From an uncultured Gammaproteobacteria bacterium (GTDB lineage: Bacteria > Patescibacteriota > Microgenomatia > CAZETR01), in assembly GCA_964514545.1 (NCBI GenBank), contig CAZETR010000033.1:1954-65953 (forward strand): a DNA stretch of 64,000 nt, read 5' to 3'. The translations under genes were made by a program, and so were the position numbers. Shown here in pieces: positions 9,797-63,758 of the stretch (positions within the stretch are counted from its first letter, which is position 1; every line of letters begins with the position of its first letter). The notes under the pieces are model-generated. The model had not been told where the DNA came from. It did no database searches and saw nothing but the letters and a program-made list of their open reading frames with translations.

Positions 9797-9841
9797 GTCT
9801 TAAAGCATACCGCACCCAACCCAACCTGTCACGAAGAAAAA

Positions 9842-10081: not shown

Positions 10082-10111
10082 GTTTGCCTTTTGAATATTG
10101 AGTTTTGAGTT

Positions 10112-19434: not shown

Positions 19435-19610
19435 CGGGGGTCTGCTCTGGAAACCAGGCAAACCCGCGATTTTAGAGATCCTTCTCCAATTGCCGGACAG
19501 GAACTACCCCGCGCGGCGGCAAATACGCCGCGAGGATGGCCCCGCCGACAGTGAAAATGAGCAGCGGTACCAAGATAGCTAAAACCACCAGATTCATGGG
19601 GTTTAGCCTA

Positions 19611-22286: not shown

Positions 22287-22345
22287 GCTTATTCTCCTTA
22301 TCTGACTAAGTCTGAACGTTGGAACGAGGAATATTGCTCGCTATT

Positions 22346-24111: not shown

Positions 24112-24130
24112 GCAACACTCTCCTTGGCAA

Positions 24131-25723
24131 CTAATTGTTGCCCTTGAACAGGCGGAAGCACTTCACAAGCGCCTCCTGCCCGCCGCGGCCGTCACAGACC
24201 GCGCCGTGCGTGTAGTCGGCGATTTCTTTCATCGCCCCTTCGCTGGCAGAGCCGAAAAGGATCGTGTAGATGGGCACATTGCTTTGATCACCCTCGTAAG
24301 TCCTCTTCAGAGAGCCAAACGACGTGCCGACCGCGTTGTGCTCACCGTCGGTCAGAAGAATAACTGCCGGAAGCTGTCCAGGCTGAGCGCCCGTCGAAAC
24401 AATCTCCACCGCTCGTTGGGCGCATCCATAGATGTTGGTTCCGCCGGCAAGTTGCTGATTCTCAACGCTTGACAGGAGCGAGGCAAACTGCACAGAATCA
24501 TTGCCTTGAATTGAATACTCAGCCAGAACATTCTCGGCAAAAGCAAGCACGTAAGTGGTGTCGCCGCCTGACGCCTGCAAGAGGTACTGCGCCGCCAGGG
24601 TTTGATCCAGCAGGAGTTTCATCGCCGCCCTGAGTTGAGTCTCACCAGTCCCCTGCATGCTACCGGAGTAGTCAAGGCAAAAGACTGTGAACGACGGCTT
24701 GCGTAAAACAGTCTGGTACATATCGAGGGCGCGGGCAATTATCGTGTCTTTTGGCAATTCGATCAGCGCAAACTCGGTTTGCGCATCGATGCCCCACGCC
24801 GGATTGAAAACGCTCGGATCGGGATTCTCCACCCGCATACCGACGCGCCCTGTCCGGAACCCGAGAGACTGCAGTTTGGCACGCACGTCGTCACTGGTGA
24901 GGTATTCGGCCAGTTGTTTGAACTGGGCCTGCTTTTCCTCACTGGCGCCCGACACCCACCCAAGCTGGTAGTTCTGCATGCCGACAGCGTTGCTGACGTA
25001 AAAGACCGTCATCGGCGCCGCACCCTTGCCGACCAGTTCTTGATTGGTCGCGATGAGCATGCTTTCCGGCAGCACTATAGCGTTGTATTGCCCGCCACCG
25101 GAAGTGCGGTCCGCCACGAATGCAGCTTTGAGGTCGCTCGCGTTGCTGGCAGTCCGGCTCACCGCGGATAGAATCGTCCGCAGCGCGTCGACATCACCGC
25201 CCGTCGCCTGCCACAAGGCAAGGTAGAAATTGGCGCCGGCATCGTCCTGCGACGCACTCGGCATGGCCAGCTTGACCTTGCCCGCATTGATCGCAGCAAT
25301 GATGTCATTGACCGTGATGCCCGTCTGAGAATTCCAGCCAAGTTCACTGACCAGACCGGGATCCATGGCGAACACCACGTAGGTGCGCATCACCGAGGTC
25401 TTATCCCGGACAAGGCTTCCCGGCAACCAGATCGGTGAGGCCGCCCAGAAGACATCCACGTCACCGGGGTTCTGTGCCGTATACGCCAGGACCTTAAGTT
25501 TGACCTCAACAGAGCCCAGATAGCGTGTAGATACCGCAACTCCGGTCTTTTCAGTGAACGCTTTGAAAATGCCAGCGTCCTCGAGAAGCTTCACCTCACT
25601 CGCCGCATTGATGCGCAGAGAGCTCGGATCAGCCGGCGGAGTGACATTGGGCAACAAATCAGGCCCGCACGCCACGACAGCCAGATACAGTAGTACGACG
25701 GGAAACAGACATAACCGCTTCAT
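24131..25723 (-). CDS. lipoprotein with N-terminal PBP-like domain and C-terminal von Willebrand factor A (vWA) domain
   Basis: Lipobox (LAVVACG), MIDAS motif 'DYSGSM', second vWA motif '…LLTDGEHN…'. Confidence 0.7.
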   Translation of the reverse strand: MKRLCLFPVVLLYLAVVACGPDLLPNVTPPADPSSLRINAASEVKLLEDAGIFKAFTEKTGVAVSTRYLGSVEVKLKVLAYTAQNPGDVDVFWAASPIWLPGSLVRDKTSVMRTYVVFAMDPGLVSELGWNSQTGITVNDIIAAINAGKVKLAMPSASQDDAGANFYLALWQATGGDVDALRTILSAVSRTASNASDLKAAFVADRTSGGGQYNAIVLPESMLIATNQELVGKGAAPMTVFYVSNAVGMQNYQLGWVSGASEEKQAQFKQLAEYLTSDDVRAKLQSLGFRTGRVGMRVENPDPSVFNPAWGIDAQTEFALIELPKDTIIARALDMYQTVLRKPSFTVFCLDYSGSMQGTGETQLRAAMKLLLDQTLAAQYLLQASGGDTTYVLAFAENVLAEYSIQGNDSVQFASLLSSVENQQLAGGTNIYGCAQRAVEIVSTGAQPGQLPAVILLTDGEHNAVGTSFGSLKRTYEGDQSNVPIYTILFGSASEGAMKEIADYTHGAVCDGRGGQEALVKCFRLFKGNN

Positions 25724-25940
25724 GTAGCCTCCTTAACTATCTAATAGCTAATGGACCAGTAGGTAAGACTATTGCCAATATCTTCGGGAAATTTTCCCTC
25801 CTTTGAATCTCAAGTTGTTAAAGAGCTAATTAGGCTGTAACTCCACAAAAAAGCACCGCAAAAGTGGCGCTTGTTCTGTGAAGTTTACATCGGGCGCGAT
25901 TTTATCAGCTTCCAACCCCTAAGTCAAATCCTATGGGTTA

Positions 25941-26723
25941 CTATTTTCCTATCGCCATCCAGTTTACCTTGACCGAAGAGTTAACGCCAGCTTTATATAC
26001 GAATTGAGTATTAGATACGCTTCTAATTAAAACCGAAAATGGAGTTCCCGTCACCGAGATAGGAGTCGCAAGTACAACGGGAGCTGATGTGTATGGCTGG
26101 CTAAAGATCACCGTTCCCTTGCCAGTAGCGTCTGATGTAGAAACACCGAAAAGCAGAGTGTTACCTGATTCAACATTTAGGGCTAAGGGTCCTGTTGCTC
26201 CGGTTGCTCCAATAGATCCAGTAGCCCCTGTCGGCCCTACCGGACCTGCAACTCCAATCGGCCCGGTCACACCGGTTGTCCCCAACAGACCTGTCGCCCC
26301 GGTTGCTCCATCTGCCCCCGCCACTCCCGTCGGTCCCGTAGTTCCCATATATCCGGCAATTCCCGAGAATCCAGTATAACCGAACAGTCCTGTGAAGCCG
26401 GTATATCCAGCCTGCCCGGACGGTCCTGTCGGTCCGGTTGTTCCAGTGGGTCCAGTGCGACCCGCAAAACCGGAAGCACCCGTGTAGCCGGCCATCCCGG
26501 TTGGTCCGGTAGCGCCCGTTAACCCAGTCGGGCCGGTTTTACCCGCTGACCCAGACATACCCGTAAATCCAGCCGGACCGGACGGACCCGTAGGACCGGT
26601 CGCTCCAGTCGGACCTGTAATTCCTGAGGAACCAGTAAAACCAGCCTGCTGAGCCAAAGCAACTCTCGCAAAAACACCAATTCCCAACACTCCGAATACT
26701 AAAACTATAATTAAGCGCTTCAT
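25941..26723 (-). CDS. secreted collagen-like triple-helix repeat protein ((G-X-T)n, BclA-like) with ~80-aa C-terminal globular domain
   Basis: Signal peptide, ~50 uninterrupted Gly-X-Thr/Pro triplets ([19 protein letters not shown]…), non-repetitive C-terminus. Confidence 0.75.
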
Positions 26724-26868: not shown

Positions 26869-28293
26869 CTATTTTATCTTTACATTAGGTCCTTGATCCG
26901 AATCATGAACTTCGTATCCCAATTTCTCTATTTCACCTCTTAATTTATCCGCCTGGGCCCAATCCTTGGCTTGTCTCGCCTTCTCTCGCCTCGCAACCAA
27001 CACAGCTACTTCTTCTGAGATTTGGGATTTGGGATTTGGGATTTGGGATAAGCGCAAGCCCAGCACCTCATCCCAACTCATCAGCAGGTCCCATTTATCC
27101 CGATCCGGCAACATGCTCTTTCCCATCTCCCATACCACTGCCATCGCCTGGGGCATATTCAGGTCATCCTCGACGGCCAAACGAAACCTATTTGTAAATT
27201 TGTCAACCAGTTTGGTTTTTGAGTCTGACACTATTTTTCTTATATCCGCATTTTCCCTCCAACCCTGCACCAACGTGACTAGCCTAACTCGGGCATTTCT
27301 GGCCGCGTCCAGAGATTCAAACGTCATATTTAACTGATCCCGGTAATGAGCGGTCAGGTAAAGATAGCGCAAGTCCAACGGATCGTAGCCCCTTTGCACT
27401 AAATCTTGAAGGGTATAAAAGTTTGCGGTACTCTTGGCCATCTTTTTACCGTTCACTAGAATAAACGCTCCGTGAACCCAATACTTCACAAACGGCTTGC
27501 CTGTCGCGGCCTCCGACTGGGCAATCTCATTGGGATGGTGGGTAGAGCGCAAATCCTCTCCACCCACGTGCAGATCAAAAGACTCACCCAAATATTTCAT
27601 GCTCATAGCCGAGCACTCGATATGCCATCCCGGAAACCCCAACCCCCAGGGACTATCCCACTCCATTTGTCGCTTAGCCAGCCCCGAGCTTGCCGAAGGA
27701 CTAAACTTCCACAGCGCAAAATCCCGTGGGTTTCGCTTCTCGGGATTTACCTCGACCCTCGCGCCCTCCCGAATCTCATCCAGTGTCGAAAGCTCACCGT
27801 AATCCGGAAATTTGGAGGTGTCAAAGTACACCCCGTCGCGGGTTTTATAAGCATAGCCCTTTTCCTCGAGTTTCTTTACCAGCTCAATTTGCTCATCTGT
27901 GTGGTCCGTGGCCTTGGCAAACAAGCGCGGTTGAATGAGATTCAACTCCCCAAAATCCTTGAGAAACGCCTGAGTATAAAATTCCGCAATATCCCAAACC
28001 GTCTTCCCTTCTCTTTTAGCTGACTCCTCCATCCGGTCGTGGCCTGTATCAGAATCTCCCAAATTATCCCCAGTCAAGTGTCCCACGTCAGTCAGATTCA
28101 TAATATAGTCAACCTCGTATCCGAAAAACTTCAGAGCCCGAATCAGTAAATCCCCCAAAGTGTAGGTACGGAAATTGCCGATGTGGGCAAAGGAGTAAAC
28201 AGTCGGTCCGCAGGTGTATATGCCAACCTTGCCTGGATTAATCGGCGCAAATTCTTCCAGCTTTCGTGTCAAAGAGTTAAACAATCTCATCAC
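26869..28293 (-). CDS. cysS: cysteinyl-tRNA synthetase
   Basis: Class I motifs: 'CGPTVYSFAHIGN' (HIGH region), 'KMAKS' (KMSKS); contains in-frame heptamer-repeat insertion (…SQIPNPKSQIS…). Confidence 0.9.
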   Translation of the reverse strand: MMRLFNSLTRKLEEFAPINPGKVGIYTCGPTVYSFAHIGNFRTYTLGDLLIRALKFFGYEVDYIMNLTDVGHLTGDNLGDSDTGHDRMEESAKREGKTVWDIAEFYTQAFLKDFGELNLIQPRLFAKATDHTDEQIELVKKLEEKGYAYKTRDGVYFDTSKFPDYGELSTLDEIREGARVEVNPEKRNPRDFALWKFSPSASSGLAKRQMEWDSPWGLGFPGWHIECSAMSMKYLGESFDLHVGGEDLRSTHHPNEIAQSEAATGKPFVKYWVHGAFILVNGKKMAKSTANFYTLQDLVQRGYDPLDLRYLYLTAHYRDQLNMTFESLDAARNARVRLVTLVQGWRENADIRKIVSDSKTKLVDKFTNRFRLAVEDDLNMPQAMAVVWEMGKSMLPDRDKWDLLMSWDEVLGLRLSQIPNPKSQISEEVAVLVARREKARQAKDWAQADKLRGEIEKLGYEVHDSDQGPNVKIK

Positions 28294-28827: not shown

Positions 28828-29247
28828 TCAACCACTCGCTCCCCGCTGTCTCTCAGCTGCAGTCTGCGCTCTTTGGACCGGTAATGGCCTAGCTTCCTTT
28901 TTCTTCCTTTCCATCAACTTAAATTGCTCTACCTTGTTCTCCTCTGCCTTTTTCTCCTGCACGTTTTTTTCGGGTTTCTTGGGCTGGGCAGAAACCATCT
29001 GGAATAGGCGCTGGCTCACTAAATAAGTTTTCGCCGCTGTATCAGCCTCGTCCTGTTGTTTCATCTGGGCAATCTGAGCTTGGGACTGGCCTGCCTGCCC
29101 TTGTTCGGCCGAGCCTTGCTCGCCGGATACTTGAGCCTTTGCTATCTCGGCCACTTTCTTGACCTCACCCACAACGGGTCGAACCGTCTGCGCTACGGCC
29201 GCAGTCAGGTTTTCAAATGAATCGGTGAAAGTCTTCTGTTGAGACAT
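28828..29247 (-). CDS. hypothetical low-complexity (Gln/Ala/Lys-rich) protein
   Basis: ORF only. Confidence 0.3.
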   Translation of the reverse strand: MSQQKTFTDSFENLTAAVAQTVRPVVGEVKKVAEIAKAQVSGEQGSAEQGQAGQSQAQIAQMKQQDEADTAAKTYLVSQRLFQMVSAQPKKPEKNVQEKKAEENKVEQFKLMERKKKEARPLPVQRAQTAAERQRGASG

Positions 29248-29322
29248 ACTAGAAAAGTAAGTTAAGAGTCAAAATGAAAAGTCAAAATTTTTTATATTTG
29301 ATCTTTAATCTTTAATCTTTCT

Positions 29323-30021
29323 TTAGTACTCCATTCTCCCCTCCATGGCCCGAGAGAGAGTAACGTCGTCGGCATACTCGATATCAGCCCCCACCGGAAG
29401 TCCACGGGCAAGCCGAGTCACCCGCGGGAGATTTAAGATTTGCTTGCCCTGAACAATGTCGGAGGGAGATTTAAGATTTGAGATTTGACCGCTGATATAC
29501 ATGGCTGTTGCTTCCCCTTCCATGTTTGAATTTAACGCCAATATTACCTCACTTATTGGGATTTGGGAATTGGGATTTGCTTGCCCCTCGAAGTCCTGAG
29601 CTTCCGATGGACGAAGTAGGGGGATTTTGAGCCGAACTATTAGTTCGGCGATGTGTATCTCATCCGGTCCGATGTTATTCAAGGGTGAAATCGATCCATG
29701 CAGAACATGATACACGCCCTTAAACACCCCGGACCGCTCCACCGCAAATAAGTCCAAGGGTTGCTCCACAACACAAATTACCCCTTTCTCGCGACTTGGA
29801 TCAGAACAAATCGGACAGGGATCGTTTTCAGAGACGTTGAGGCAAATGGAGCATAAAACCGTATGCTTCTTTAAATTTCCCAGAGCTTCGGCAAATTGGT
29901 CCAGGTGATCCTGGGGAACATGAAGTAAGTAGTAAGTTAACCTCTGCGCCGACTTGGGCCCAATCCCCGGCAATCTCTCAAAGGCCTCAATAAGTCTCGC
30001 AAGGGGTCTGGCAATCTGCAT
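29323..30021 (-). CDS. recR: recombination protein RecR
   Basis: HhH N-terminus, C4 zinc finger (CSICLN…CPIC), Toprim region; two repeat-derived insertions. Confidence 0.85.
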   Translation of the reverse strand: MQIARPLARLIEAFERLPGIGPKSAQRLTYYLLHVPQDHLDQFAEALGNLKKHTVLCSICLNVSENDPCPICSDPSREKGVICVVEQPLDLFAVERSGVFKGVYHVLHGSISPLNNIGPDEIHIAELIVRLKIPLLRPSEAQDFEGQANPNSQIPISEVILALNSNMEGEATAMYISGQISNLKSPSDIVQGKQILNLPRVTRLARGLPVGADIEYADDVTLSRAMEGRMEY

Positions 30022-30096
30022 CGCTCTTTATATTACCAAAAAATCCGTTCCCGTAGATCACCAATTCAAATTTTAAATTGTAAATTGTAAATTCGG

Positions 30097-32430: not shown

Positions 32431-32530
32431 CTCGTCCCACCATAGCAGAAACTTAACCTATCATGTCAAGACTCAGGCGGAACAGAGAAGTTAGAAGTTA
32501 AAATGCGAAAGGCAAAATTGAATTTTGAAT

Positions 32531-32935
32531 TTACTCGGGATGGTGTTTTCCCAACAAATGCAGAGTTCCATGCTCGACCAGTTCAGCCAAAATCTCATCC
32601 AGCATCCGGCTTCTTTTCTTGGCCCACTCCTTAACCTGAGGAAAAGAAATAACAATGTCGCCTAATCGTAAGATCCCATCCGGACCAGTTCCTTTTCCTA
32701 CTTTTGACTCTTCAAGAGTAAAAGACAACACGTCGGTCGTCTTGTCCAATCCCCTGTACTGCTTATTCAACCCCCGCATTTTGCGATCACCGACGATTGC
32801 TACACTCACCTCCACTACCCCCAAATCACTAACCCGATTAGCTTTAAGCGTTCTGCGAACAACTTCCCGAATCAGCTTCCGATTTGCGGGATATCTGGAT
32901 TCAGCGGTAACCAAAACATTTATCATCTCAAACAC
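32531..32935 (-). CDS. ybeY: endoribonuclease YbeY (rRNA maturation)
   Basis: '…TDVLSF…LGDIVIS…' and C-terminal His-rich 'HGTLHLLGKHH' metal site. Confidence 0.75.
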   Translation of the reverse strand: MFEMINVLVTAESRYPANRKLIREVVRRTLKANRVSDLGVVEVSVAIVGDRKMRGLNKQYRGLDKTTDVLSFTLEESKVGKGTGPDGILRLGDIVISFPQVKEWAKKRSRMLDEILAELVEHGTLHLLGKHHPE

Positions 32936-33386: not shown

Positions 33387-33424
33387 TTTTGAAATTTGTG
33401 ACTTGGGATTTGGGGCTTGTCGAC

Positions 33425-33607
33425 CTACCCTCTTCTTTTCATTCCCCGCTGCATCCGTTTTTTCTCGTAACGAACACGGGAGGGCTTTTGGTAAAACTCG
33501 CGCTTTTTCAGCTCATTGATAATATCATCAGCCAGCACCTTCTTGCGAAATGCTGCTATAAGCTTATCATCGCTATCTCCTGGTTTTTTTTTGACTACTG
33601 TAGCCAT
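33425..33607 (-). CDS. rpsU: 30S ribosomal protein S21
   Basis: 60-aa basic protein, …YEKKRMQRGMKRR C-terminus. Confidence 0.85.
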   Translation of the reverse strand: MATVVKKKPGDSDDKLIAAFRKKVLADDIINELKKREFYQKPSRVRYEKKRMQRGMKRRG

Positions 33608-33660
33608 TAAACACCTCCTTTGTAAAATTTAAAAGTTAAAAGGCAAAATTAATTGAAAAT

Positions 33661-34088: not shown

Positions 34089-34113
34089 TATATCATATAT
34101 TAGTATATGATAT
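34089..34113. repeat. AT-rich palindrome copy 2 (TATATCATATATTAGTATATGATAT)
   Basis: Same 13-bp arms as copy 1 in inverted centre orientation; 3' of TrpR-like gene, ~70 bp upstream of HIT gene. Confidence 0.9.
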
Positions 34114-34118
34114 GTGAA

Positions 34119-34589
34119 TTACTTTAGATTCGACTTCAGGCTCCTTTTTTTTGTTTCTTTGGTGAAAGGTTCGACAAATGTATATTTACGAAAGGTCTGT
34201 CTATTTAATCGACCCAGGACTTCCTCGAGTATATCCCCAAGCCTCTCAGATTGCTCTGTACTCCTTGCCACCCTCTCTCGTTGACTAATATGGACAAATG
34301 CCTGAGCCAGCTTGGGCCCTGCTTCACGATGCTCAATTCTCAAACGCCACACAGTCATTGCCGACAACCCCAAACCGGTACAAATCTGAGAATCGGGGTA
34401 GTCCTTCGCAATCAAATAATGAGCCACCAGTCTTTTGGCCAACATTATCCGCTCTGTCCTCGTTAGGATTATCTGCAAAAATTCTGAAAGAATTCTGTCC
34501 TTGGCTGATCCAACCAGAGCTGCGTCAAAGCTCCCAATCAGTGCCGCCTCGAGTTCCCGCCCCAAATCTTTCTTAGAAATATGAGTCAC
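34119..34589 (-). CDS. TrpR/YerC-YecD-like helix-turn-helix DNA-binding protein (GTG start)
   Basis: '…ERIMLAKRLV…YPDSQICTGLGLSAMTVWRL…' resembles Trp-repressor-like HTH; gene bracketed by palindrome copies 2 and 3. Confidence 0.5.
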   Translation of the reverse strand: MTHISKKDLGRELEAALIGSFDAALVGSAKDRILSEFLQIILTRTERIMLAKRLVAHYLIAKDYPDSQICTGLGLSAMTVWRLRIEHREAGPKLAQAFVHISQRERVARSTEQSERLGDILEEVLGRLNRQTFRKYTFVEPFTKETKKRSLKSNLK

Positions 34590-34596
34590 TAAAAAA

Positions 34597-34625
34597 GTAT
34601 ATCATATACTAATATATGATATACA
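34597..34625. promoter_or_regulatory. AT-rich palindrome copy 3, 8 nt upstream of the GTG start of the TrpR-like gene (candidate autoregulatory operator)
   Basis: GTATATCATATACTAATATATGATATACA read directly; overlaps expected RBS/promoter of 34119-34589. Confidence 0.6.
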
Positions 34626-38731: not shown

Positions 38732-38772
38732 TTATCTGTATCCGAGGTTTTTGTGATTTGAGATTTGGCTAA

Positions 38773-39364: not shown

Positions 39365-40513
39365 TTAGAAATCCCAGGTTAAAAGATATATATCGTGCCT
39401 GGTATCCTCCCCAGCCTTCAACATCTGGGCCTTCGAAATTAACTCCAAAGCCCTGACCCAAACTGGTTCATTTTTTTCGGCAATAGGCCAATAATTTTCC
39501 AGCGAATTTGCCACTAAAAATTGCAATTCAGGCGGTTGTTCTTGGGTATGCCGTACACCGACTACCGCAACTGCATGGTCAGCAAAAATCCTCATAAATA
39601 GGCCTCCTTTACGCTGCTCCATTAATTTTATTGCCTCCCCCCAGTTGAAATCCGCATGGACGTCAAACCCCTTTTCAGCCATATAGTCGAGCCACTTACC
39701 ACCGAAAGTCCTGTACCTCGTCCCCTCGCCTTGCGGAATTCGCTGCTGCATCTCTGTAATATCTACGGGTTTAATATCTGCCCCTTGGGCAAGAGCCGCT
39801 TGGGCTAAGTTATAGCTTGCATACAGCACGCATTCCACGCCGGTTTGCATCGTAACCCTGTCAAGCATTCGAATTTCCGGAAGAAAATGCCTGGTCACCT
39901 GAAAACTAGTTTCAGCCGCTTCAAAATCCTGAAGTTCGTCTACTCGCTTACTCAAGTCAGATAAATATGCTAATAATTGATCGAGCGATCTTCCCTCAAT
40001 CTCAGAAGGCGGAATTCCTAATGCAGTTGCCAACCGCACCGCCCGCATTGGATTAACCTTAGGCATACCCAGGCTAATCACATTAAGAATATCATCACCG
40101 CCAACGACTAGCTCCTTTGTCTCTTCAAAAATAATTCTGATTATTTCACTAGCCGGAGCAGTCTCTGGAAATTGATCTAGAATTCTAATCACATCTGCAA
40201 TTGACTGATCAGTGCTGCCAGCGACCTTCGGACCCGGAAGGTGGTCTATGCGAATCTGGGTGAGAAGATCAGAATCAGGATCCTGTTCCCGAACAAGCGC
40301 GATCAACTTAACAAGGGCATCGCTATCCCCCCTACCCATAATCCTATCTATAATCGACTTGAAATCAAATGTTCCAGCCCCGGTGTTCATTCTCTCTGGT
40401 TCACCCAATCCAGACAGCTTGATAAAAGTCCTTAACCCTAGTATTTCGTCCTCCCTGTTTGGCAAGACTGGCTTTTTAGAAGGTTGGAAATCTGTATGAT
40501 CTTCAGAATACAT
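39365..40513 (-). CDS. hypothetical protein with C-terminal papain-fold (C39-like) cysteine-peptidase signature, occupying the usual pyrH position
   Basis: C-terminal 'Q…GVECVLYASYNLAQAAL' (Cys) and 'ADHAVAVVGVRH' (His) with C39_2-like spacing; N-terminal ~200 aa unassigned. Confidence 0.35.
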   Translation of the reverse strand: MYSEDHTDFQPSKKPVLPNREDEILGLRTFIKLSGLGEPERMNTGAGTFDFKSIIDRIMGRGDSDALVKLIALVREQDPDSDLLTQIRIDHLPGPKVAGSTDQSIADVIRILDQFPETAPASEIIRIIFEETKELVVGGDDILNVISLGMPKVNPMRAVRLATALGIPPSEIEGRSLDQLLAYLSDLSKRVDELQDFEAAETSFQVTRHFLPEIRMLDRVTMQTGVECVLYASYNLAQAALAQGADIKPVDITEMQQRIPQGEGTRYRTFGGKWLDYMAEKGFDVHADFNWGEAIKLMEQRKGGLFMRIFADHAVAVVGVRHTQEQPPELQFLVANSLENYWPIAEKNEPVWVRALELISKAQMLKAGEDTRHDIYLLTWDF

Positions 40514-40988: not shown

Positions 40989-41076
40989 GCGGATATCTTG
41001 CAGTATTAATCGGACTCGTCGAGTTGCATCAACTGTCCAGATTGGACATTTGAAATTGAGTGATTGTTGATTTGGT

Positions 41077-41982: not shown

Positions 41983-42008
41983 TATATCATATACTAATAT
42001 ATGATATA
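41983..42008. promoter_or_regulatory. AT-rich palindrome copy 4, ~110 bp upstream of rpsB
   Basis: TATATCATATACTAATATATGATATA read directly. Confidence 0.6.
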
Positions 42009-42842: not shown

Positions 42843-43681
42843 TTCAGCACCTCCACCAAATTCTCAAACAAACTTACAACTGTTACCGGACCGACACCCC
42901 CGGGTACCGGGGTAATGAAACTGGCCTTCGGGGAAACAGAAGCAAAGTCAAAGTCGCCCTGCGGGGAACCCACGTCAATAGCAATTACGCCCCGCTCGCC
43001 TCGCCGAAGCCCGTCGGGCGAAGGAGGGTCTTTTACCATATCGCGGGTTATAAGACCCGGCCGACCTGTGGCGCTAATTACCACGTCGGCGGTCTTTAAT
43101 TTCTCGATGTCGAAATCCTCTCTGTCCATGCCGAAAACTATCATCTTCCCTCTTTTCTCTATCTCTATCTCAATTCTTCTCCCAACCGTTCCCTTATTCC
43201 CAACAACCGCCAGGCTGACAGGGACTGTCCTTGTCAATCGCATCGCCTCATCGAGAATCGCGATAACCGCCCGAACAGTAGCCGGTAAAAGGTAACTATC
43301 GGGGCGAAGACCATCGATATCCTTACGCGAATCAATCAATTCCACAATTTCCGATTCCAAATCACGAGTATCGGGAAGTAACGGAAGCTGAATCATGATA
43401 CCGTCAACCGTAAAACCAACATTTAACCGCAGGATTAAATCTCTTAAACCGGCCGGGTTGAACGAATTGGAAATAGGGGTGGAGACAAAATCTATTCCCA
43501 TCTCGCCCGCTTTCTTTTCCTTAATCCGAGTGTATATCCGGCTGGGCTCATGATTGGGATTATAGATACTCGTTAGTTTGGGTCTGCGCCCAAGTTTTTC
43601 GGTCAGCTTAACTACTCTATCTCTAACCTCTATCTCTATCTTATTCGCAAACTCTTTACCGTTAAAAACTATGGGGGCCAT
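42839..43681 (-). CDS. folD: bifunctional methylenetetrahydrofolate dehydrogenase/cyclohydrolase
   Basis: C-terminal 'TPVPGGVGPVTV' and overall FolD layout. Confidence 0.85.
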   Translation of the reverse strand: MAPIVFNGKEFANKIEIEVRDRVVKLTEKLGRRPKLTSIYNPNHEPSRIYTRIKEKKAGEMGIDFVSTPISNSFNPAGLRDLILRLNVGFTVDGIMIQLPLLPDTRDLESEIVELIDSRKDIDGLRPDSYLLPATVRAVIAILDEAMRLTRTVPVSLAVVGNKGTVGRRIEIEIEKRGKMIVFGMDREDFDIEKLKTADVVISATGRPGLITRDMVKDPPSPDGLRRGERGVIAIDVGSPQGDFDFASVSPKASFITPVPGGVGPVTVVSLFENLVEVLK

Positions 43682-43731
43682 CGTGGAAAGTCAAAAATTA
43701 AAAGGCAAAAGGCAAAATTTAAAGTAAAAAG

Positions 43732-45081
43732 TTAAAAGTCTGACGGAATCGGGAACTCTCTACACAGAGACAATACTTCCTTTCTCAACCGGACGACCGT
43801 CTCATCCTCAAAAATCTTAACTTTGAAACGCTTCCTGGCAGCTTGATCTTTTTCCTTATCTCCGCTTCCAATATCTGCGAATTTTGATTTGACATTGGAC
43901 ATCGCCAGATTTGTGATCGTATCGATCCACCCCGCAATTAACCTCATTTCTTTCTCCTTCATTCCGCGGGTTGTAATCGCCGGAGTCCCCAACCTTAATC
44001 CTGAAGGGTAGTAATTGCTCCGAGGATCATTGGGAATCGTTTGCCGATTGGCTACAACCCCCGCAGCTTCCAGAGCCCACGCGGCAGTCCAGCCATCTAT
44101 CTCTTTGTTTGAAAGGTCAATCCAGATCATGTGGTTTTCCGTCCCACCACCGATCAAGGTATAGTCTTTTTGTGATAACACTTCACAAATTGCTTGAGCA
44201 TTTGTAACTATCTGTTTCGCATAGATCTTAAATGCATCCGTCATCGCTTCATCCAGCGCTACAGCCACCCCGGCTACAGTCTCCATGTGCGGACCGCCCT
44301 GAAGTCCGGGAAAAACAGCTCTGTCTATTTTCTCCCCCAGCGCCGGATCTTTCTTGAGTCCCTTGTCAGTTACCATAACGATCGCCCCCCGCGGTCCCCG
44401 CAGAGTCTTGTGAGTTGTAGTCATAATTACATCCGCAAAAGGCACGGGTGAGGGATGAGCATTACCTGCAACCAAGCCCGCAATATGGGAAATGTCAGCT
44501 ACAAAATAAGCCCCGACCTTTTTAGCAACTTGGGCATATCTCTCCCATTTAAAAACCCTGGTATATCCAGTCCCGCCGGAAAAAATAATTTTGGGCTGGA
44601 ATTTCACCGCCTGACTCTCCAGGCTCTCCCAGTCAATCTCTCCATCGGCAGTCATGTAGTAATAAAAGGGCTTAAAAAATTTAGAAGTCACACTGGCCGT
44701 TTGTCCCATAGACAGGTGCCCCCCGTGAGACAAAAGCTGCGAAAGAATTACATCCCCCGGCTCGCAGATGGCCGAAAGGATGGCCAGATTCGCGGGTGAT
44801 CCGGAGTAGGGCTGAACATTGACATACGGCACGCCAAACAATTTCTTCGCCCTCTCCTGCGCCAGTCTTTCCAGTTTGTCTACCGCCTCGTTGCCCTGAT
44901 AGTATCTCTTGCCCGGGTACCCCTCGGCATACTTATTCATAAACACCGACCCGACCGCTTCCATCACCGCCCGGGATACATAGTTTTCCGAGGGAATCAT
45001 CTCCAAAACCTCCGATTGGCGTTTCTGCTCCAAGCCAATCAGTTCGCGGACATCCAAGTCATCTAAAATCTTTTTCACCAC
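43732..45081 (-). CDS. glyA: serine hydroxymethyltransferase
   Basis: 'LIPSENYVS', PLP site 'TTHKTLRGPRG'. Confidence 0.9.
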   Translation of the reverse strand: MVKKILDDLDVRELIGLEQKRQSEVLEMIPSENYVSRAVMEAVGSVFMNKYAEGYPGKRYYQGNEAVDKLERLAQERAKKLFGVPYVNVQPYSGSPANLAILSAICEPGDVILSQLLSHGGHLSMGQTASVTSKFFKPFYYYMTADGEIDWESLESQAVKFQPKIIFSGGTGYTRVFKWERYAQVAKKVGAYFVADISHIAGLVAGNAHPSPVPFADVIMTTTHKTLRGPRGAIVMVTDKGLKKDPALGEKIDRAVFPGLQGGPHMETVAGVAVALDEAMTDAFKIYAKQIVTNAQAICEVLSQKDYTLIGGGTENHMIWIDLSNKEIDGWTAAWALEAAGVVANRQTIPNDPRSNYYPSGLRLGTPAITTRGMKEKEMRLIAGWIDTITNLAMSNVKSKFADIGSGDKEKDQAARKRFKVKIFEDETVVRLRKEVLSLCREFPIPSDF

Positions 45082-52163: not shown

Positions 52164-54322
52164 GTTTGTTTCGGTTTAGCCGCGCCCTCCGTAGCCCTTG
52201 GCGTTGGGCGGGTCCAACTGGCAAAATCGCACTTGGGGTAGCTGGAGCAGCCGTAAAACGACTTGCCTGTGCGGGTTTTCTTAATGATTATATCCCCTCC
52301 GTCCTTGGGGCACTTCACTCCCTCGACGACCTGCACATAATTGGCCTTGTATTTACACTCCGGAAAACGGGAGCAGGAGAGGAATTTGCCAAACTTGCCC
52401 AACCTGATAACGATATCCCCGACCTTGCAATCCGGGCACTTCTCCCCTGTGGCTTCAGTTTCTACCGCAACTCTCTCGGCCACCTCCCCGACCGCCGTCA
52501 ATTTCTCGGAAAACGGAATATAAAACTCCTTTATTACCTTCTCCCAATCTAAGTTCCCGTTGGCAATTGAATCCAGCTCGTCCTCCATCTTGGCCGTAAA
52601 CTGATAATCAACAATATTGGGGAAATACTCGACTAAAAAGTCATTCACCGCAAATCCCAGCACTGTAGGTTTAAGTCTCCTGGCCTCCCGTTCCACATAT
52701 TGCCTGTCGACAATGGTCGTAATGGTCGGGGCGTATGTAGAAGGCCTACCGATCCCCAGCTCCTCGAGAGCTTTGATCAGTGAAGCTTCATTAAACCGTG
52801 CCGGCGGTTGGGTAAACTTCTGTTCGCTTTTAATCTCGCTTTTATTCAGCTCCTCGCCCTGGATTAGTTCAGGCAACCGTTGGTCGTCTACTGTGTTTTC
52901 GTCAATACCGTTTTGATCATTTAAGTTTCGGACTTTATTGGGATTTGAGATTTGGAATTTGGGATTTGTTTGATACAGTCGGCTCCACCCGGCAAACTTC
53001 ATTACCTCTCCCTTGGTTTCGAGGATATACACATGTTTCGCCCCCTCGGCACTTACCCGAACCGTTGTCTGATCAACAACGGCCTCCGCCATTTGGGTTG
53101 CCATAAATCTATTCCAAATTAGTTCGTAGAGCTTCCGGCCTTCATGCTCAACGTTTATTCTGGCAGGATCTGTGGGCCTAATAGCCTCATGCGCCTCCTG
53201 GGCAACTTTGGATTTAGTCTTGTAAAATCTGGGCGCGGAAAGAGCGTATTCCGGACCAAACTCCTTTTCAATTACAACCTTTGCGGCCGTAACCGCCTCC
53301 ATCGCCATATTCGTCGAATCCGTGCGATGATAGGTAATCAGTCCCTCTTCATATAAAGACTGGGCTATCTGCATTATCCTTTTAGCCGTCATTCCCATTT
53401 TGTTTGAAGCAATTTGCTGGAGGGTTGATGTCGTAAACGGCGGCGGCGGAGTTCGCCTGAGCTCCTTTTTCTCAATCGCTACAACCTGATACCCCGCCTC
53501 TTCCAACTCAGATACCGCATCCTGAGCCTCTGCCCCGTTTGTAATTTTTATTTTCGCCCCGTCTCTTTCAACCAAGGTAACCCAAAACATTTCGAGATTT
53601 GACATTTGAGATTTGTCATTTGTCATTCGCGCAAGCAACGCTTGAATCGCCCAGTATTCCTCAGGTACAAACTTCTCTATCTCCCTCTCCTTCTCCACAA
53701 TCAACCGCACTGCGACCGACTGCACCCGACCCGCGGAAAGTCCCCGCCTGACCTTGCGCCACAGAAGAGGCGAAAGCTTATAGCCCACCAGCCGATCCAA
53801 AGCTCTTCTGGCCTGCTGAGCGTTAACCAGGGGCATATCGATAGTTCGCGGATGTTTAAAAGACTCCAAAATTGCGTGCTCGGTAATCTCATGAAACACA
53901 ATCCTACTAAATAAGGATTGAGGATTGAGAATTGAGAATTGACGATGAGGTTTGAGATTTGAAGTTAGAGGACCGACATCTGACTTCGACAATCTACCCT
54001 CAGGATCAGTCTTCTTCCTTCGATCTTCGGTCTTCAGTAATTGCGAAATGTGCCATGCAATGGCCTCTCCCTCCCGATCAGGGTCCGTCGCCAAAAATAT
54101 TGCAGCTGATTCTTTGGCAATTTTCTTTAATTCATTAACCCTCTCATCTTTTTTCTCAATTACCACATAGTCCATCTTTACCCCCCCGTTCACACTTACC
54201 CCAATCTTCTTCTTCGGCAAATCCCGAACATGTCCCATGGTCGCCTCCACCCGGAAAGTTGCATCCAGGTACTTTGACAGCGTGCGAGCTTTAGTTGGAC
54301 TTTCAACAATAACTAAATTCAT
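52160..54322 (-). CDS. topA: DNA topoisomerase I with C-terminal zinc ribbons
   Basis: Toprim N-terminus (MNLVIVESPTKA), active-site region 'GLITYHRTDS', C4 zinc ribbons; contains several repeat-derived in-frame insertions. Confidence 0.9.
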   Translation of the reverse strand: MNLVIVESPTKARTLSKYLDATFRVEATMGHVRDLPKKKIGVSVNGGVKMDYVVIEKKDERVNELKKIAKESAAIFLATDPDREGEAIAWHISQLLKTEDRRKKTDPEGRLSKSDVGPLTSNLKPHRQFSILNPQSLFSRIVFHEITEHAILESFKHPRTIDMPLVNAQQARRALDRLVGYKLSPLLWRKVRRGLSAGRVQSVAVRLIVEKEREIEKFVPEEYWAIQALLARMTNDKSQMSNLEMFWVTLVERDGAKIKITNGAEAQDAVSELEEAGYQVVAIEKKELRRTPPPPFTTSTLQQIASNKMGMTAKRIMQIAQSLYEEGLITYHRTDSTNMAMEAVTAAKVVIEKEFGPEYALSAPRFYKTKSKVAQEAHEAIRPTDPARINVEHEGRKLYELIWNRFMATQMAEAVVDQTTVRVSAEGAKHVYILETKGEVMKFAGWSRLYQTNPKFQISNPNKVRNLNDQNGIDENTVDDQRLPELIQGEELNKSEIKSEQKFTQPPARFNEASLIKALEELGIGRPSTYAPTITTIVDRQYVEREARRLKPTVLGFAVNDFLVEYFPNIVDYQFTAKMEDELDSIANGNLDWEKVIKEFYIPFSEKLTAVGEVAERVAVETEATGEKCPDCKVGDIVIRLGKFGKFLSCSRFPECKYKANYVQVVEGVKCPKDGGDIIIKKTRTGKSFYGCSSYPKCDFASWTRPTPRATEGAAKPKQT

Positions 54323-55236: not shown

Positions 55237-55311
55237 GAATGCTATTAGTCAAATTAGTCTAATTGGAACTATTGGTCAAATTTGTAGTATTTGTCGGATT
55301 TGTCTGATTAC

Positions 55312-58245: not shown

Positions 58246-58311
58246 TTGGCTAATTGGTCAAACTGGCAGGATTAGACTGATTTGGCATTTGAAATTATCT
58301 GATTGGTTGAT

Positions 58312-60828: not shown

Positions 60829-62967
60829 ATGGATATAATTCGGCAGAAAAACATCCATTCAGTCGTATTTGTTCTCGTCTTTTTAACCATCCCCATTATT
60901 GCCACCCCACTCAACTCCGAGCTTTTCGAATTCAATAAAATAGTCATTTTATATACACTAACGACTATTGCAGTTGGAGCCTGGATCGCCAGGATGATTT
61001 GGGAAAAGCGAATTATCATCAAACGCACCCCGTTTGATATTCCCCTGCTCCTCTTTCTCGCCTCGCAGATCCTCTCAACCATTTTCTCCATCGACCTTCA
61101 CACCTCAATCTTCGGCTACTATTCCAGGTTTAACGGCGGACTTCTTTCGACAATCTGTTATCTGCTGCTTTATTGGGCATTCGTCAGCAATATAGATGCA
61201 AGGCAAGCCAAAGCTATTTTAAAAACCACCCTTTGGACCGCCGCCTTCGTCGCTATCTGGGGAATTCTGGAGCACTTTGGCCACTCGCCCAGCTGTCTAA
61301 TTATTACAGGCAAGTTCAACGCCGAGTGTTGGGTCCAGGACGTGCAAAACAGAGTGTTCGCTACCCTGGGGCAACCGAATTGGCTGGCAGCTTACCTGGT
61401 TGTGCTTATCTTTATTCCAGTCTCAGAAACAATAGCAAATATTAAAAATCAAAGATCGAAAATACAAATAAAAAACTTAAATATAACTATCCTTGCCAAT
61501 TTAGCTATCTCGCTTCTTTTATTCGCCTGCCTGTTATTTACCAAGTCGAGATCTGGAATTCTGGCTTTCGCCATCTCATCGCTCGCCTACTGGACTCTTC
61601 TAATCATCAAGACCAGAGACGCAAAATTTCTAGTCAAACCATTTTTGGTATTTAATATTTCATTTTTAATTTTAGTCGCAACGTTTGGCACTCCCTGGAC
61701 ACCATCACTTGAAAGCTATCTAAAATCCCGATCCCAATCCCCGATTACATCCAAGCCTCAACCAGCCGACTTACTTATATCCGAATCGGGCGATATCAGA
61801 AAAGTTGTCTGGAAAGGAGCCATTAACCTGTGGAAACTAAAGCCTGTTTTTGGCTCCGGGGTCGAAACCTTTGCCTATGCCTATTACTGGACCCGACCGC
61901 CAGAACACAATCTCCTTTCCGAGTGGGACTTTGTCTATAACAAAGCGCATAACCAGTATCTTAATCTGGCCGCAACCAGCGGAAGCATCGGTTTACTAAC
62001 TTACATTTTGGTGATAGGGACGGCTGTTCTTATATTCCTCAAGCCACAGGCCACAAGCTCCAATGATTTGGGATTTCTGCCCGCGGCTCTGGCTGCCGGA
62101 TGGTTTAGTATTTTAATTACCAACTTTTTCGGCTTTTCGGTCGTGCCGGTGGACCTGCTCTTTTTTCTCCTGCCCGCCATTGCAACCGTAATCCAAGCTC
62201 AATCACCCGACCCCAATTATCAAACTCAATTCTCCCGTCTTCAACAGGGCTTCGACGGGGAACCAAATCTCAAATCTCAAATCTCTATCCCGCAAGTCAC
62301 CGGCCTCGCATTTATCTCTATCTCAACTCTCTATCTTCTCATCTCAATCGGACGTTACTGGTTTTCTGATTTTCACTACGCCAAATCAGTTACTTTTTCC
62401 AAAACAGTCCTGACCCTCCCCGACGCATTTGATGAAATCAGAAACGCCATTCGTCTAAACCATAGCGAACCGATTATGCTCGACCGCCTATCCTCAATTT
62501 CCACCGATATCGCCGGCGCCACCAAAAACAACGCGTCCATTTCCGCGCAAATGAAAGACCTGGCAGTGGCTGCCAGCGACGAAGCAATAAGACTTTCCCC
62601 TTACAATTTAACGCTTCTCCAAAACCGGGCAGCTAACCTAAACTCGCTCACATCGCTCGATCCGTCCCTTTTCCCCCAATCCGTCGCGGCTCTCCAAGCG
62701 GCAATCAATATCTCACCCAGCTTCCCCAAGTTCTACTACAACCTGGGTGTAATCTACAGCCAAAAAGGAATTTTTGATCCCGCGATAGAAAATCTAAAAA
62801 AAGCCTATCAACTTAAGCCCAACTACCAAGAACCGCTTTTGGCGCTTGCCCAGATTTATGATAAAGAAAAGGACCAAAAAACTGCCCTTGAATATTACCG
62901 AAAGCTTCTCGAAATAAACCCCTCCAATCCGATAGCGAAACAAAAACTAGGCCTGCCCGCTAATTGA
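60829..62967 (+). CDS. O-antigen ligase/polymerase-like (Wzy_C) membrane protein with C-terminal TPR repeats
   Basis: ~10 TM helices with large periplasmic loop, C-terminal TPR-like 'YNLGVIYSQKG…AYQLKPNYQE…'. Confidence 0.55.
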   Translation: MDIIRQKNIHSVVFVLVFLTIPIIATPLNSELFEFNKIVILYTLTTIAVGAWIARMIWEKRIIIKRTPFDIPLLLFLASQILSTIFSIDLHTSIFGYYSRFNGGLLSTICYLLLYWAFVSNIDARQAKAILKTTLWTAAFVAIWGILEHFGHSPSCLIITGKFNAECWVQDVQNRVFATLGQPNWLAAYLVVLIFIPVSETIANIKNQRSKIQIKNLNITILANLAISLLLFACLLFTKSRSGILAFAISSLAYWTLLIIKTRDAKFLVKPFLVFNISFLILVATFGTPWTPSLESYLKSRSQSPITSKPQPADLLISESGDIRKVVWKGAINLWKLKPVFGSGVETFAYAYYWTRPPEHNLLSEWDFVYNKAHNQYLNLAATSGSIGLLTYILVIGTAVLIFLKPQATSSNDLGFLPAALAAGWFSILITNFFGFSVVPVDLLFFLLPAIATVIQAQSPDPNYQTQFSRLQQGFDGEPNLKSQISIPQVTGLAFISISTLYLLISIGRYWFSDFHYAKSVTFSKTVLTLPDAFDEIRNAIRLNHSEPIMLDRLSSISTDIAGATKNNASISAQMKDLAVAASDEAIRLSPYNLTLLQNRAANLNSLTSLDPSLFPQSVAALQAAINISPSFPKFYYNLGVIYSQKGIFDPAIENLKKAYQLKPNYQEPLLALAQIYDKEKDQKTALEYYRKLLEINPSNPIAKQKLGLPAN

Positions 62968-62985
62968 CAGGGTTCAACCCTGTCA
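62965..62985. repeat. REP-like palindrome TGACAGGGTT-C-AACCCTGTCA (copy 1), overlapping the stop codon of the upstream gene
   Basis: Perfect 10-1-10 palindrome read directly. Confidence 0.85.
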
Positions 62986-62998
62986 GTCAAAATCACAG

Positions 62999-63686
62999 AG
63001 TGCCTTCAAAGAACACAATCAAGAACTATCTCCCCGAACACTACTATCACGCCTATAACCGAGGTGTCGAGAAACGCGACATTTTCATGGACGACCAAGA
63101 TTACCGAGTATTTCTATCCCTTATAAGACATCTCCTCACGCCAAAAACGGGTAGCTACTCCCACCCAATAACAGCCGTGACAGGGTTGAACCCTGTCAGA
63201 ATGCGGCAAATAGGCAATATCTCATCTGAAGTACAACTAGTAAGCTACTGCCTCATGCCAAACCATTTCCATTTATTAATCTGGCAAAAGACTCCCCTTG
63301 GCATGAAGAAATTGATACAAAAGCTTTGTACAAGTTACTCTATGTATTTCAATAAAAAATACTCTCGAGTCGGTCACTTGTTTCAGGGAATATACAAAGC
63401 TGTAAATATTGAAGGCGACAGCTATCTTCTCCACCTCTCAAGATACATCCACCTCAATCCGACCGACGTCGAAATAGACTACAAAACCTATCCCTATTCA
63501 AGTTATAAATATTTTCTTTCAGAAAAACCTCCGGTATGGCTTTATCCAAACCACATTCTTGAATACTTCAAACAAACGTCACCAATTAAGCCCATCGCAG
63601 AGGAGAAATTCAATTCCTACAAATCATTTGTCGAGGATTATTCCGAAGACTCGCGCAACATACTTCAAAATTATTGCGTTGATTAG
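62999..63686 (+). mobile_element. Y1 HuH transposase, REP-associated tyrosine transposase (RAYT)/IS200-like TnpA
   Basis: 'YHAYNRGVEKRDIF', HuH motif 'YCLMPNHFHLLIW', catalytic Tyr region 'YKAVNIEGDSYLLHLSRYIHLNP'; ORF-track TTG start at 62964 lies inside the REP, GTG at 62999 more plausible. Confidence 0.7.
63178..63198. repeat. REP-like palindrome copy 2 (TGACAGGGTT-G-AACCCTGTCA) located inside the transposase coding sequence, in frame
   Basis: Read directly; encodes …TAVTGLNPVRM…. Confidence 0.85.
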
Positions 63687-63692: not shown

Positions 63693-63711
63693 GACAGGGT
63701 TCAACCCTGTC
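63693..63711. repeat. REP-like palindrome copy 3 (GACAGGGTT-C-AACCCTGTC) just 3' of transposase stop
   Basis: Read directly. Confidence 0.85.
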
Positions 63712-63758
63712 ACTCTATCAAGCGCTCCACTTGGCATATAAGCTGGTAAAATACACTC

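Follow-up and report, generated by a model that had tools for sequence, protein, structure and literature searches.

The stretch of DNA analysed here (the window) comprises 64,000 nucleotides of contig CAZETR010000033.1 (assembly GCA_964514545.1), and the elements under study are short, degenerate tandem arrays with a repeat unit of 7 nt that lie in intergenic spacers and within several genes. The window has a G+C content of 47% with a strong strand skew, and between 7.4 and 59.4 kb most genes are encoded on the minus strand. Pfam matches identify the housekeeping operons rpsF-ssb-rpsR, recR-ybaB-dnaX, rpsU-yqeY-ybeY, rpsB-tsf-frr-rseP, glyA-folD, and topA-dprA-PBP2-mreC-mreB. For SHMT, TopA, and RecR, the nearest relatives were found in Patescibacteria metagenome-assembled genomes (MAGs) of the Microgenomates type. 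The closest of these is a Candidatus Amesbacteria MAG with merely 64–66% amino acid identity (best match 65% in the genome scan and 64% in the metagenome scan; next relative of RecR 66%), indicating that the host is an isolated lineage of the candidate phyla radiation. Ten window proteins formed singleton clusters. A scan of the window for tRNA genes found none, and comparison with the Rfam covariance models at gathering score gave 0 matches, so the heptamer tracts do not belong to a known structured RNA family.

The flagged tract is located at the SHMT-FolD boundary (43682–43739, minus strand) and consists of heptads that read GACTTTT, AACTTTT, TACTTTA, AATTTTG, CCTTTTG, CCTTTTA, ATTTTTG, and ACTTTCC on the sense strand. 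It overlaps the SHMT stop codon (43732–43734), ends directly before the FolD ATG (43681), and is identical in a Logan contig (L081). A sequence-only reading of the window had listed this spacer among ten that it took to be tandem repeats rather than random AT-rich DNA, and the periodicity analysis bears this out. Tandem Repeats Finder (TRF) returned 20 period-7 rows, compared with a mean of 1.27 and a maximum of 7 in 30 block-wise dinucleotide shuffles of the window, and enrichment over shuffled sequence was the test on which that reading had staked its claim. A lag scan gave 13 arrays at period 7 and 0, 5, 1, 7, and 1 arrays at periods 5, 6, 8, 9, and 10, respectively, and GATTTGRGATTTG with up to 2 mismatches was matched 38 times in the window, with 7.3 matches expected (maximum 14). 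The best period is 7 in eight of the ten listed spacers, seven of which reach P ≤ 0.0125. The spacer at 55237–55311 is a period-9 array (P = 0.0005), and the periodicity at 41041–41076 and 58246–58311 is individually non-significant. The repeat unit had been given as GATTTG or AAATTG (5–6 nt) or as a 10-nt unit, and this has to be corrected to 7 nt, with 9 nt in one spacer. The statement that nearly every minus-strand spacer is built in this way was too strong. The window has 37 gaps of at least 24 nt, nine of which are significant by shuffle test; among the 28 minus-strand gaps nine are significant, seven of these with the present repeat family, and three more are marginal. On the sense strand the units fall into an A-rich family (YCAAATC, ACAATTT, AAAACTC) and a T-rich family (GNCTTTT, AACTTTT), and on the plus strand the spacer arrays read GATTTGR, AAATTGT, and AAAAGKC. 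The individual intergenic arrays are as follows.

43682–43739, minus strand: the flagged tract, eight heptads in register (lag-7 identity 0.68, P = 0.0005).
10082–10113, minus strand: (AAAACTC)n in the ssb-rpsR spacer, 9 nt 5′ of the S18 ATG (P = 0.002; Pfam).
29251–29323, minus strand: array in the spacer between RecR and a hypothetical gene (P7 = 0.0015), with (AAAGATT)x4 right behind the RecR stop, then T-rich heptads (TTTTGAC TTTTCA TTTTGAC ...) up to the next ATG.
30065–30095, minus strand: (ACAATTT)x3.7 right behind the YbaB stop, 43 nt before the RecR ATG (lag-7 identity 0.83, P = 0.0005).
32486–32532, minus strand: heptads right behind the YbeY stop, ~58 nt before the DnaX ATG (P = 0.0005), reading ATTCAAA ATTCAAT TTTGCCT TTCGCAT TTTAACT TCTAACT and holding the exact 12-mer AAAGGCAAAATT (plus strand).
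33388–33420, minus strand: CCCCAAATCCCAAGTCACAAAT heptads in the rpsU-yqeY spacer, ending 8 nt before the YqeY ATG (lag-7 identity 0.69, P = 0.0005); the S21 reading frame is 33425–33607.
33621–33660, minus strand: T-rich heptads right behind the stop of a HIT protein (P7 = 0.005), again holding AAAGGCAAAATT; a canonical AAAGGAGG and then the S21 ATG follow downstream of the tract.
38741–38768, minus strand: CCAAATC TCAAATC ACAAAAA, 4 nt after the RRF stop and 20 nt before the RseP ATG (P7 = 0.0125).
41041–41076, minus strand: degenerate CAAAT-rich tract right behind the S2 stop, ~52 nt before the EF-Ts ATG (P7 = 0.07, not individually significant).
55237–55311, minus strand: period-9 array filling the whole PBP2-DprA spacer (lag-9 identity 0.64), with sense units CAAATCCGA, CAAATACTA, CAAATTTGA, CCAATAGTT, CCAATTAGA, CTAATTTGA, and CTAATAGCA, in which a CAAAT core is constant.
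58246–58311, minus strand: CAAAT/CCAAT-rich MreB-MreC spacer with mixed 7–9 nt spacing and GATTTGGCATTTG at 58279.

These tracts had been placed immediately 5′ of the downstream start codons, which holds for about half of them. The arrays at S18, YqeY, FolD, DprA, MreC, and the hypothetical gene 28828–29247 lie within the ribosome-loading region, and those at RecR, DnaX, EF-Ts, and S21 lie outside it. The arrays at 30065–30095, 32486–32532, 33621–33660, 38741–38768, and 41041–41076 begin at the upstream stop codon, 20–58 nt from the next start. A different kind of repeat is present in the spacer 5′ of the S41 peptidase gene (9797–9841), where a G-rich sequence (GGTTGGGTTGGGTG, sense strand) recurs with a period of ~5–6 nt; its composition is the opposite of that of the heptamer family.

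Arrays inside protein-coding genes

The same repeat family also invades coding regions, as the sequence-only reading had stated. Arrays of the sense-strand family CAAATCY were found in RecR, TopA, CysRS, HisRS, and a Wzy/TPR gene.

27014–27052, minus strand: perfect (CCAAATC)x4.4 in CysRS (100% matches, TRF; Pfam).
29430–29489, minus strand: two TCAAATC/TTAAATC arrays in RecR, encoding the loop insertion GQISNLKSPSDIVQGKQILNLP (..QISNLKSP..), which is not in solved RecR structures.
29555–29579, minus strand: CAAATCC CAATTCC CAAATCC in RecR, encoding ..ANPNSQIP.. in a second loop insertion.
52942–52968, minus strand: CAAATCC CAAATTC CAAATCT CAAATC in TopA, in a ~24-aa insertion (PKFQISNPNK...) relative to homologs.
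53587–53627, minus strand: CAAATGA/CAAATCT/CAAATGT with a 14-nt higher order in TopA, coinciding with a 6-aa insertion (NDKSQM).
53912–53962, minus strand: TCAATTC/TCAATCC in TopA, inside a 34-aa insertion.
1417–1445, plus strand: (CTATCT)2(CAAATCT)2.6 in the HisRS gene, sense strand CAAATCT.
62262–62288, plus strand: perfect (CAAATCT)x3 in an inter-domain linker of the Wzy_C/TPR gene, sense strand CAAATCT.

In RecR and TopA the arrays coincide exactly with lineage-specific loop insertions, those of TopA being judged against four homologs. The CysRS and HisRS arrays occupy variable linkers with no net insertion, and the CysRS array encodes SQIPNPKSQIS in the linker preceding the anticodon-binding domain. 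The TopA of two related loci (L083 and L084, 54% identical to the window protein) also has independent arrays, with the units CAAATCC/CAAGCCC and CAAGAWC, in the loops that correspond to 53587 and 53912, the CAAATCC/CAAGCCC array being the one at the 53912-equivalent loop. In the highly constrained SHMT, 77 orthologs yielded merely three arrays, which are weak and resemble ordinary coding sequence.

Two further observations concern repeats within genes. On the template (plus) strand of CysRS, positions 27019–27049 read (GATTTGG)x4.4, with four GGG runs separated by 4-nt loops, which is a canonical G-quadruplex motif (G3N4 x4). A hexamer, (TCTCTA)n, occurs inside five genes (at 1417, 38156, 43157, 43615, and 62313) and reads TCTCTA on the plus strand regardless of the strand of the gene, so that the sense strand of the minus-strand genes is GATAGA (encoding IEIE or DRDR); this is unlike the heptamers, whose units track gene orientation.

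Distribution, turnover, and RNA properties of the arrays

For comparison, 80 Patescibacteria loci around SHMT (1.22 Mb in total, labelled L001, L012, and so on) and a 50-kb stretch of Escherichia coli were examined, with block shuffles as controls for the loci. The pooled loci contain 157 period-7 arrays, compared with 13.2 in the shuffles, with periods 6, 8, and 9 mildly raised and periods 5 and 10 at background, and no period-7 array was found in the E. coli stretch. Loci labelled Microgenomates hold 44 period-7 arrays versus 7 at period 6 and 8 at period 8, and a period-7 excess is absent from the loci labelled Parcubacteria. Per 100 kb, spacers hold 65 arrays and coding sequence 7. Their units vary by genome (AATTAGA, AATTTCT, AAGTATT, CAAATCN, and others), and the pattern, which had been suggested to be specific to this genome, is a common one of varied-unit heptamer arrays across Microgenomates-type Patescibacteria. 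Full-text literature searches returned no report of such repeats in Patescibacteria, and heptamer arrays in this radiation have apparently not yet been reported.

Within the pooled loci, one genome (L042) has a dispersed, heptad-periodic upstream element of ~90 nt (...TTGGGATTTAGGGATTGATTAGGGTAATTAGAGCAATTAGAAATTAGAAATT..) in four copies that end 1–11 nt before start codons. The copies and their relatives, the latter in other Microgenomates, are as follows.

L042 13782–13806: copy of the ~90-nt element.
L042 14334–14354: copy of the ~90-nt element.
L042 17701–17721: copy of the ~90-nt element.
L042 19590–19610: copy of the ~90-nt element.
L040 1793–1818: related element.
L044 2188–2208: related element.

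The units are homogeneous within an array and differ between arrays. Adjacent units of one array are 86% identical, and the consensus sequences of different arrays are 60% identical, compared with a null value of 53%. The 14-nt higher-order units in TopA (TRF) also count toward local amplification. Replacement at an orthologous site is seen in two loci (L012 and L014) that are ~87% identical over aligned blocks. In one thymidylate-synthase-like loop with near-identical flanks, L012 has (AAATTAA)n where L014 has (AAAGTTC)n, and the lengths of the arrays differ. Loci L083 and L084 are identical to each other and therefore uninformative on turnover.

Same-species Logan contigs from two runs (ERR3478687 and ERR4904393) were used to look for differences between strains. 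Over the 10,377 nt compared in the ERR3478687 contigs there are five differences, all in or at most 2 nt from heptamer tracts that account for 3.4% of the bases compared (P = 4e-8 for the clustering of all five). Three are single-nucleotide polymorphisms (SNPs) inside the RecR array 29430–29489 (29435, 29444, and 29473), and a further SNP at 30073 switches the third unit of the 30065–30095 array between AAAATTT and ACAATTT. Three of the SNPs switch one unit to another, TCAAATC to or from TTAAATC, or ACAATTT to or from AAAATTT. The fifth difference is a 1-nt indel at 29277, in contig L092, which restores the 7-nt register. The ERR4904393 contigs show no difference across the arrays they cover. 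The unit sequence is conserved neither between close strains nor at orthologous sites, which argues against the proposal, in its strict form, that the units are a motif for an RNA-binding protein.

The arrays have a marked sense-strand composition. In the window, G is less frequent than C on the sense strand of 11 of 12 intergenic tracts (G 3–14%) and of all eight coding arrays, whereas array-free minus-strand spacers have more G than C (228 versus 142) and coding sense strands have 28% G. The HisRS and Wzy/TPR arrays, in plus-strand genes, read CAAATCT on the plus strand, indicating that array orientation tracks the direction of transcription rather than the chromosome strand. Among the pooled arrays, the sense strand has more A than T in 45 intergenic cases versus 17 and in 69 coding cases versus 8. 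This bias persists for units free of stop codons whichever way they are read (21 versus 0).

As RNA, the arrays are unstructured. Eight spacers folded with minimum free energies (MFE) of 0 to −14 kcal/mol and z-scores of 0 to +1.4 relative to shuffles, with no excess structure. In the pooled loci array-bearing leaders fold less than other leaders (MFE −2.96 versus −5.55 kcal/mol, P = 8e-5) because of the composition of the arrays. Among pooled genes with a real upstream spacer, a Shine-Dalgarno (SD) core precedes 12% of those without arrays and 10% of those with arrays; the frequencies are alike, indicating that the arrays do not replace an SD that would otherwise be used. The lineage is SD-poor irrespective of the arrays. 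In the window, the repeat tracts are SD-free and few genes outside a GC-rich island are preceded by an SD. This island (~19600–25900) has 55–57% G+C, versus 44–50% in the rest of the window, and encodes mostly unknown proteins plus a solute-binding/VWA protein. It has strong SD motifs, lacks heptamer arrays, was probably acquired horizontally, and is adjoined by a gene for a collagen-triple-helix-repeat protein (25941–26723).

Known repeat systems and other candidate elements

Heptanucleotides are the most abundant class of long simple-sequence repeat (LSSR) in most prokaryote genomes, and slippage has been proposed as their origin, as the survey is cited in two later papers (Mrázek, Guo and Shah 2007, via PMC4679880, PMC4692102). 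As far as those citations describe LSSRs, the likeness to the present arrays is close, in that both consist of 7-nt units in tandem, outnumber arrays of other unit lengths, lie mostly between genes, and have a patchy phylogenetic distribution. Several properties of LSSRs were found here, namely units of 5–11 nt (here 7 nt) arranged head to tail, an excess over composition, dominance of 7 nt, and turnover relative to the flanks. The arrays differ from LSSRs in being short (2.5–8 units), degenerate, and A/T-rich, and in frequently occupying essential genes despite a 7-nt unit length, which is not divisible by 3. The host belongs to a candidate-phyla-radiation lineage that, as the survey is cited, was apparently outside its coverage.

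Cyanobacterial short tandemly repeated repetitive (STRR) sequences have the units CCCCAGT, TTGGTCA, and CAACAGT, and G-rich heptamers are known from Nostoc, GGGGA(T/C)T, and Xanthomonas, GGGAATC (Rehm 2015, PMC4692102). They share with the present arrays an intergenic location and variation in length and sequence between close relatives (PMC4692102), and the GGGATTT unit in the window (plus strand) resembles GGGGATT and GGGAATC. The host is nevertheless related to Patescibacteria/Microgenomates and is not a heterocystous or other cyanobacterium. Tandem copies of STRR1-3 (both strands), TAACTGA, GGGAATC, and GGGGATT were not found in the window, and TAACTGATAACTGA is absent. Unlike in the G-rich heptamers, four G3 runs occur in one array alone (27014–27052), on the template strand of the gene.

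A further parallel is provided by the TAACTGA repeats of marine Beggiatoaceae, for which a translational role has been proposed that is experimentally untried (MacGregor 2015, PMC4679880). Both systems consist of few-copy heptamer direct repeats in SD-poor spacers, with some copies in reading frames and in ribosomal-protein operons. The TAACTGA system is dominated by a single unit, always forward-oriented and placed directly before starts, whereas many units are found here and about half of the arrays abut SD-less starts, the other half stops. Borg tandem repeats evolve rapidly, are enriched in A on the coding strand, and occur in spacers and reading frames (Schoelmerich 2023, PMC9879509). The A-rich sense strand, rapid turnover, and creation of disordered protein segments are common to both, but Borg units are longer, perfect, and always a multiple of 3 in reading frames, and those described here are 7 nt long, degenerate, and on a bacterial chromosome. 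Two traits of the present arrays are notable, namely how often they invade essential proteins in frame at recurrent loops and their tendency to cluster at gene boundaries.

Several other classes of element were considered and set aside. Promoter and intrinsic-terminator scans of 28–45.5 kb gave counts equal to those in shuffles, which rules out the arrays as either. Among the arrays, 27019–27049 alone qualifies as a G-quadruplex heptamer (at least four G3 runs with short loops), the others having 0–3 GGG runs. CtsR-like and IHF-like operators, judged by eye, do not fit in spacing or consensus. REP/MITE-like palindromic elements are excluded by the lack of structure beyond shuffles, and the palindromes in the window are other sequences.

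Two palindrome families were observed. An AT-only palindrome of ~25 nt, TATATCATATA-(3–4 nt)-TATATGATATA, is found at four intergenic sites (2053–2077, 34089–34113, 34598–34622, and 41983–42007), two of which flank an unknown 156-aa gene (34119–34589). The copy at 34598–34622 is followed by TTTTTT on the sense strand, and the palindrome may serve as an operator or as an AT-stem terminator. A gene for a Y1 (IS200-like) transposase (62964–63686) is accompanied by three copies of a 21-nt palindrome, TGACAGGGTT(C/G)AACCCTGTCA, at 62965–62985, 63178–63198, and 63693–63713. The gene is flanked by two of these copies and contains the third, an arrangement like that of RAYT/REP or IS200 elements, and the sequence is unrelated to the heptamers. 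Elsewhere in the window, EF-Ts is unusually short (153 aa), and a 382-aa protein without a Pfam match is encoded between tsf and frr (39365–40513), a position usually occupied by pyrH.

Origin and possible role of the arrays

We consider the tracts, with a probability of roughly 0.6, to be heptanucleotide simple-sequence repeats that arise and become uniform locally, with slippage as the simplest cause, evolve far more quickly than the flanking sequence, and are filtered by selection. The period-7 signal and its excess across the lineage, the match between coding arrays and insertions in RecR and TopA, the local homogeneity of units, their replacement at an orthologous site, and the clustering of strain differences all point in this direction. 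Slippage as the molecular cause is what we infer from the local homogeneity together with the proposal in the literature, and selection is likewise inferred as the source of the orientation bias. Short units would be amplified and homogenised in place by replication slippage or mis-realignment and would later decay through point mutation, the spacer at 55237–55311 being a putative 9-nt derivative. The arrays would survive where they are tolerated, in transcribed co-directional spacers, at gene ends, and in surface loops or linkers of proteins, where three heptads would add a hydrophilic stretch of 7 residues such as PNPKSQI or QISNLKS. Selection would act as a filter on orientation and composition, leaving a sense strand that is G-poor, A- or T-rich, and, in proteins, stop-free. 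The resulting mRNA would form unstructured, SD-free linkers and the resulting protein flexible insertions, and whatever SD-independent initiation might gain from this would be a secondary effect of composition, not specific to sequence.

A number of observations weigh against local slippage as the full account. Outside arrays, the sense strands of the window contain CAAATC 16 times and GATTTG 55 times, so the arrays were not amplified from the commonest seeds. With the reverse complement 3.4 times commoner, seed abundance is ruled out as the cause of the CAAATC orientation. The G<C and A>T biases of the sense strand in non-coding DNA are not predicted by neutral slippage. Placement is non-uniform as well. 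Co-directional spacers hold the pooled arrays at three times the density of divergent or convergent spacers (P = 7e-5). Within 10 nt of a stop there are 17 pooled arrays and within 10 nt of a start 15, compared with ~6.2 each by random placement, but the start-side count is inflated because gene starts in the pooled loci are crude longest-ORF calls and arrays often carry stop triplets in all frames. Nor are the units random. The 11-mer CAAATCTCAAA is present at seven separate loci, on the sense strand every time; units of the CAAATC type turn up again in the nearest relatives (L001, L083/L084, L043, and L080); and (AATTAGA)n, or TTAGAAATT, lies at most 12 nt from starts in seven other genomes, ending 1–11 nt before the ATG. 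The exact 12-mer AAAGGCAAAATT occurs in three spacers, in each just after a stop codon and with similar flanks. This triplicate, the start-proximal (AATTAGA)n, the sense-strand 11-mer, and the ~90-nt upstream element of L042, L040, and L044 hint at dispersal or function for some arrays. Finally, no whole-unit change in copy number was found in the short same-species Logan contigs, in which there are just SNPs and the 1-nt indel.

An alternative, which we hold tentatively and at clearly lower probability, is that the arrays serve as SD-independent leaders or standby sites. A/U-rich or CA-rich SD-independent enhancers, such as S1-dependent leaders, are G-poor and unstructured, lie 5′ of SD-less starts, and are defined by experiment. 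The present arrays, characterised from sequence, are alike in being G-poor and unstructured but inconsistent in their position relative to the start. A/U/C-rich, G-poor, unstructured RNA would let the 30S subunit load or re-initiate, for example via S1, and repetition would be the cheapest route to such sequence. The scarcity of SD cores (~12% of pooled genes and few window genes), the weak folding of array leaders (z ≥ 0), the G-poor sense strands, the enrichment in co-directional spacers and beside starts, the (AATTAGA)n leaders in seven genomes, and the like role proposed for the TAACTGA repeats (MacGregor 2015, PMC4679880) are consistent with this. On the other hand, half of the window arrays are at the stop end of the spacer, SD frequency is unchanged by arrays, most SD-less genes have no array, identical units occur inside genes where initiation is not needed, and the start-proximal enrichment is partly confounded by the longest-ORF starts. 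The arrays would suit unstructured linkers and might act as translation leaders.

More doubtful is a maintained, transcription-oriented system in Microgenomates-type Patescibacteria, in which a lineage factor (a ribosomal or RNA-binding protein, or a property of the polymerase) would read or write the 7-nt register. The arrays would then be self-renewing, SD-free leaders and linkers (CAAATCY here, AATTAGA elsewhere), with disordered loop insertions at recurrent hot spots of essential proteins as a side effect.

It is unlikely that the arrays are sites for a protein that reads the 7-nt register, either in RNA (cold-shock, KH, or S1-type) or in DNA (nucleoid or regulatory), with the CAAAT core as the recognised element. 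This core does stay fixed even as the other bases of the unit, and the period itself (7 or 9 nt), change, and the sense-only 11-mer and the unit families common to the nearest relatives would be expected of such sites. However, units differ between arrays nearly as much as the null, the second, T-rich family (GNCTTTT) is found at equivalent positions, and units change freely in close strains and at orthologous sites. The window proteins include no candidate binder, and many copies lie within essential genes.

Still less probable are Rho-loading (rut-like) sites, unstructured C>G stretches after stops that would cause Rho-dependent attenuation or polarity. The excess of C over G in 11 of 12 tracts, a reversal of the bias found elsewhere in the genome, the lack of structure, the many tracts that start at a stop codon, and the absence of enrichment of intrinsic-terminator-like sites are what such sites would show. 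Yet arrays in the pooled, AT-rich relatives have no C>G bias, and most tracts, at 28–60 nt or more broadly 28–75 nt, are below the typical rut length (RNA of ~70–80 nt). The tracts also lie within conserved operons (rpsB-tsf, mreB-mreC, rpsU-yqeY, and glyA-folD), where termination would be costly, and rho is not among the window genes. We give equally little weight to the arrays being copies of small dispersed intergenic elements, mobile or recombining, like the small dispersed repeats of cyanobacteria. The triplicate 12-mer with its similar flanks, the ~90-nt element of L042 with its relatives in L040 and L044, and the Y1/IS200-like transposase with flanking palindromes would fit such elements, but most arrays have private units and unshared flanks, the tracts lack terminal inverted repeats and hairpins, and the Y1 palindromes are of unrelated sequence. 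Chance low complexity in AT-rich spacers, which could account for the two of ten listed spacers that are individually non-significant, is refuted by the shuffle tests, in which period-7 arrays are 12 to 16 times as frequent as in composition-preserving shuffles, with no enrichment at periods 5 and 10.

Local generation of heptanucleotide repeats under selection does not overturn current understanding, as it has precedents in the heptamer simple-sequence repeats, STRR sequences, TAACTGA repeats, and Borg repeats. If the arrays are general in Microgenomates, they mark gene boundaries and loop insertions and may mislead ORF callers, which matters for annotation. As fast-evolving markers they are usable for telling strains apart in metagenomes, and they offer a natural test case for the start of translation within operons in an SD-poor lineage. 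They would also constitute a concrete source, at the level of DNA, for the many lineage-specific protein insertions of this radiation.

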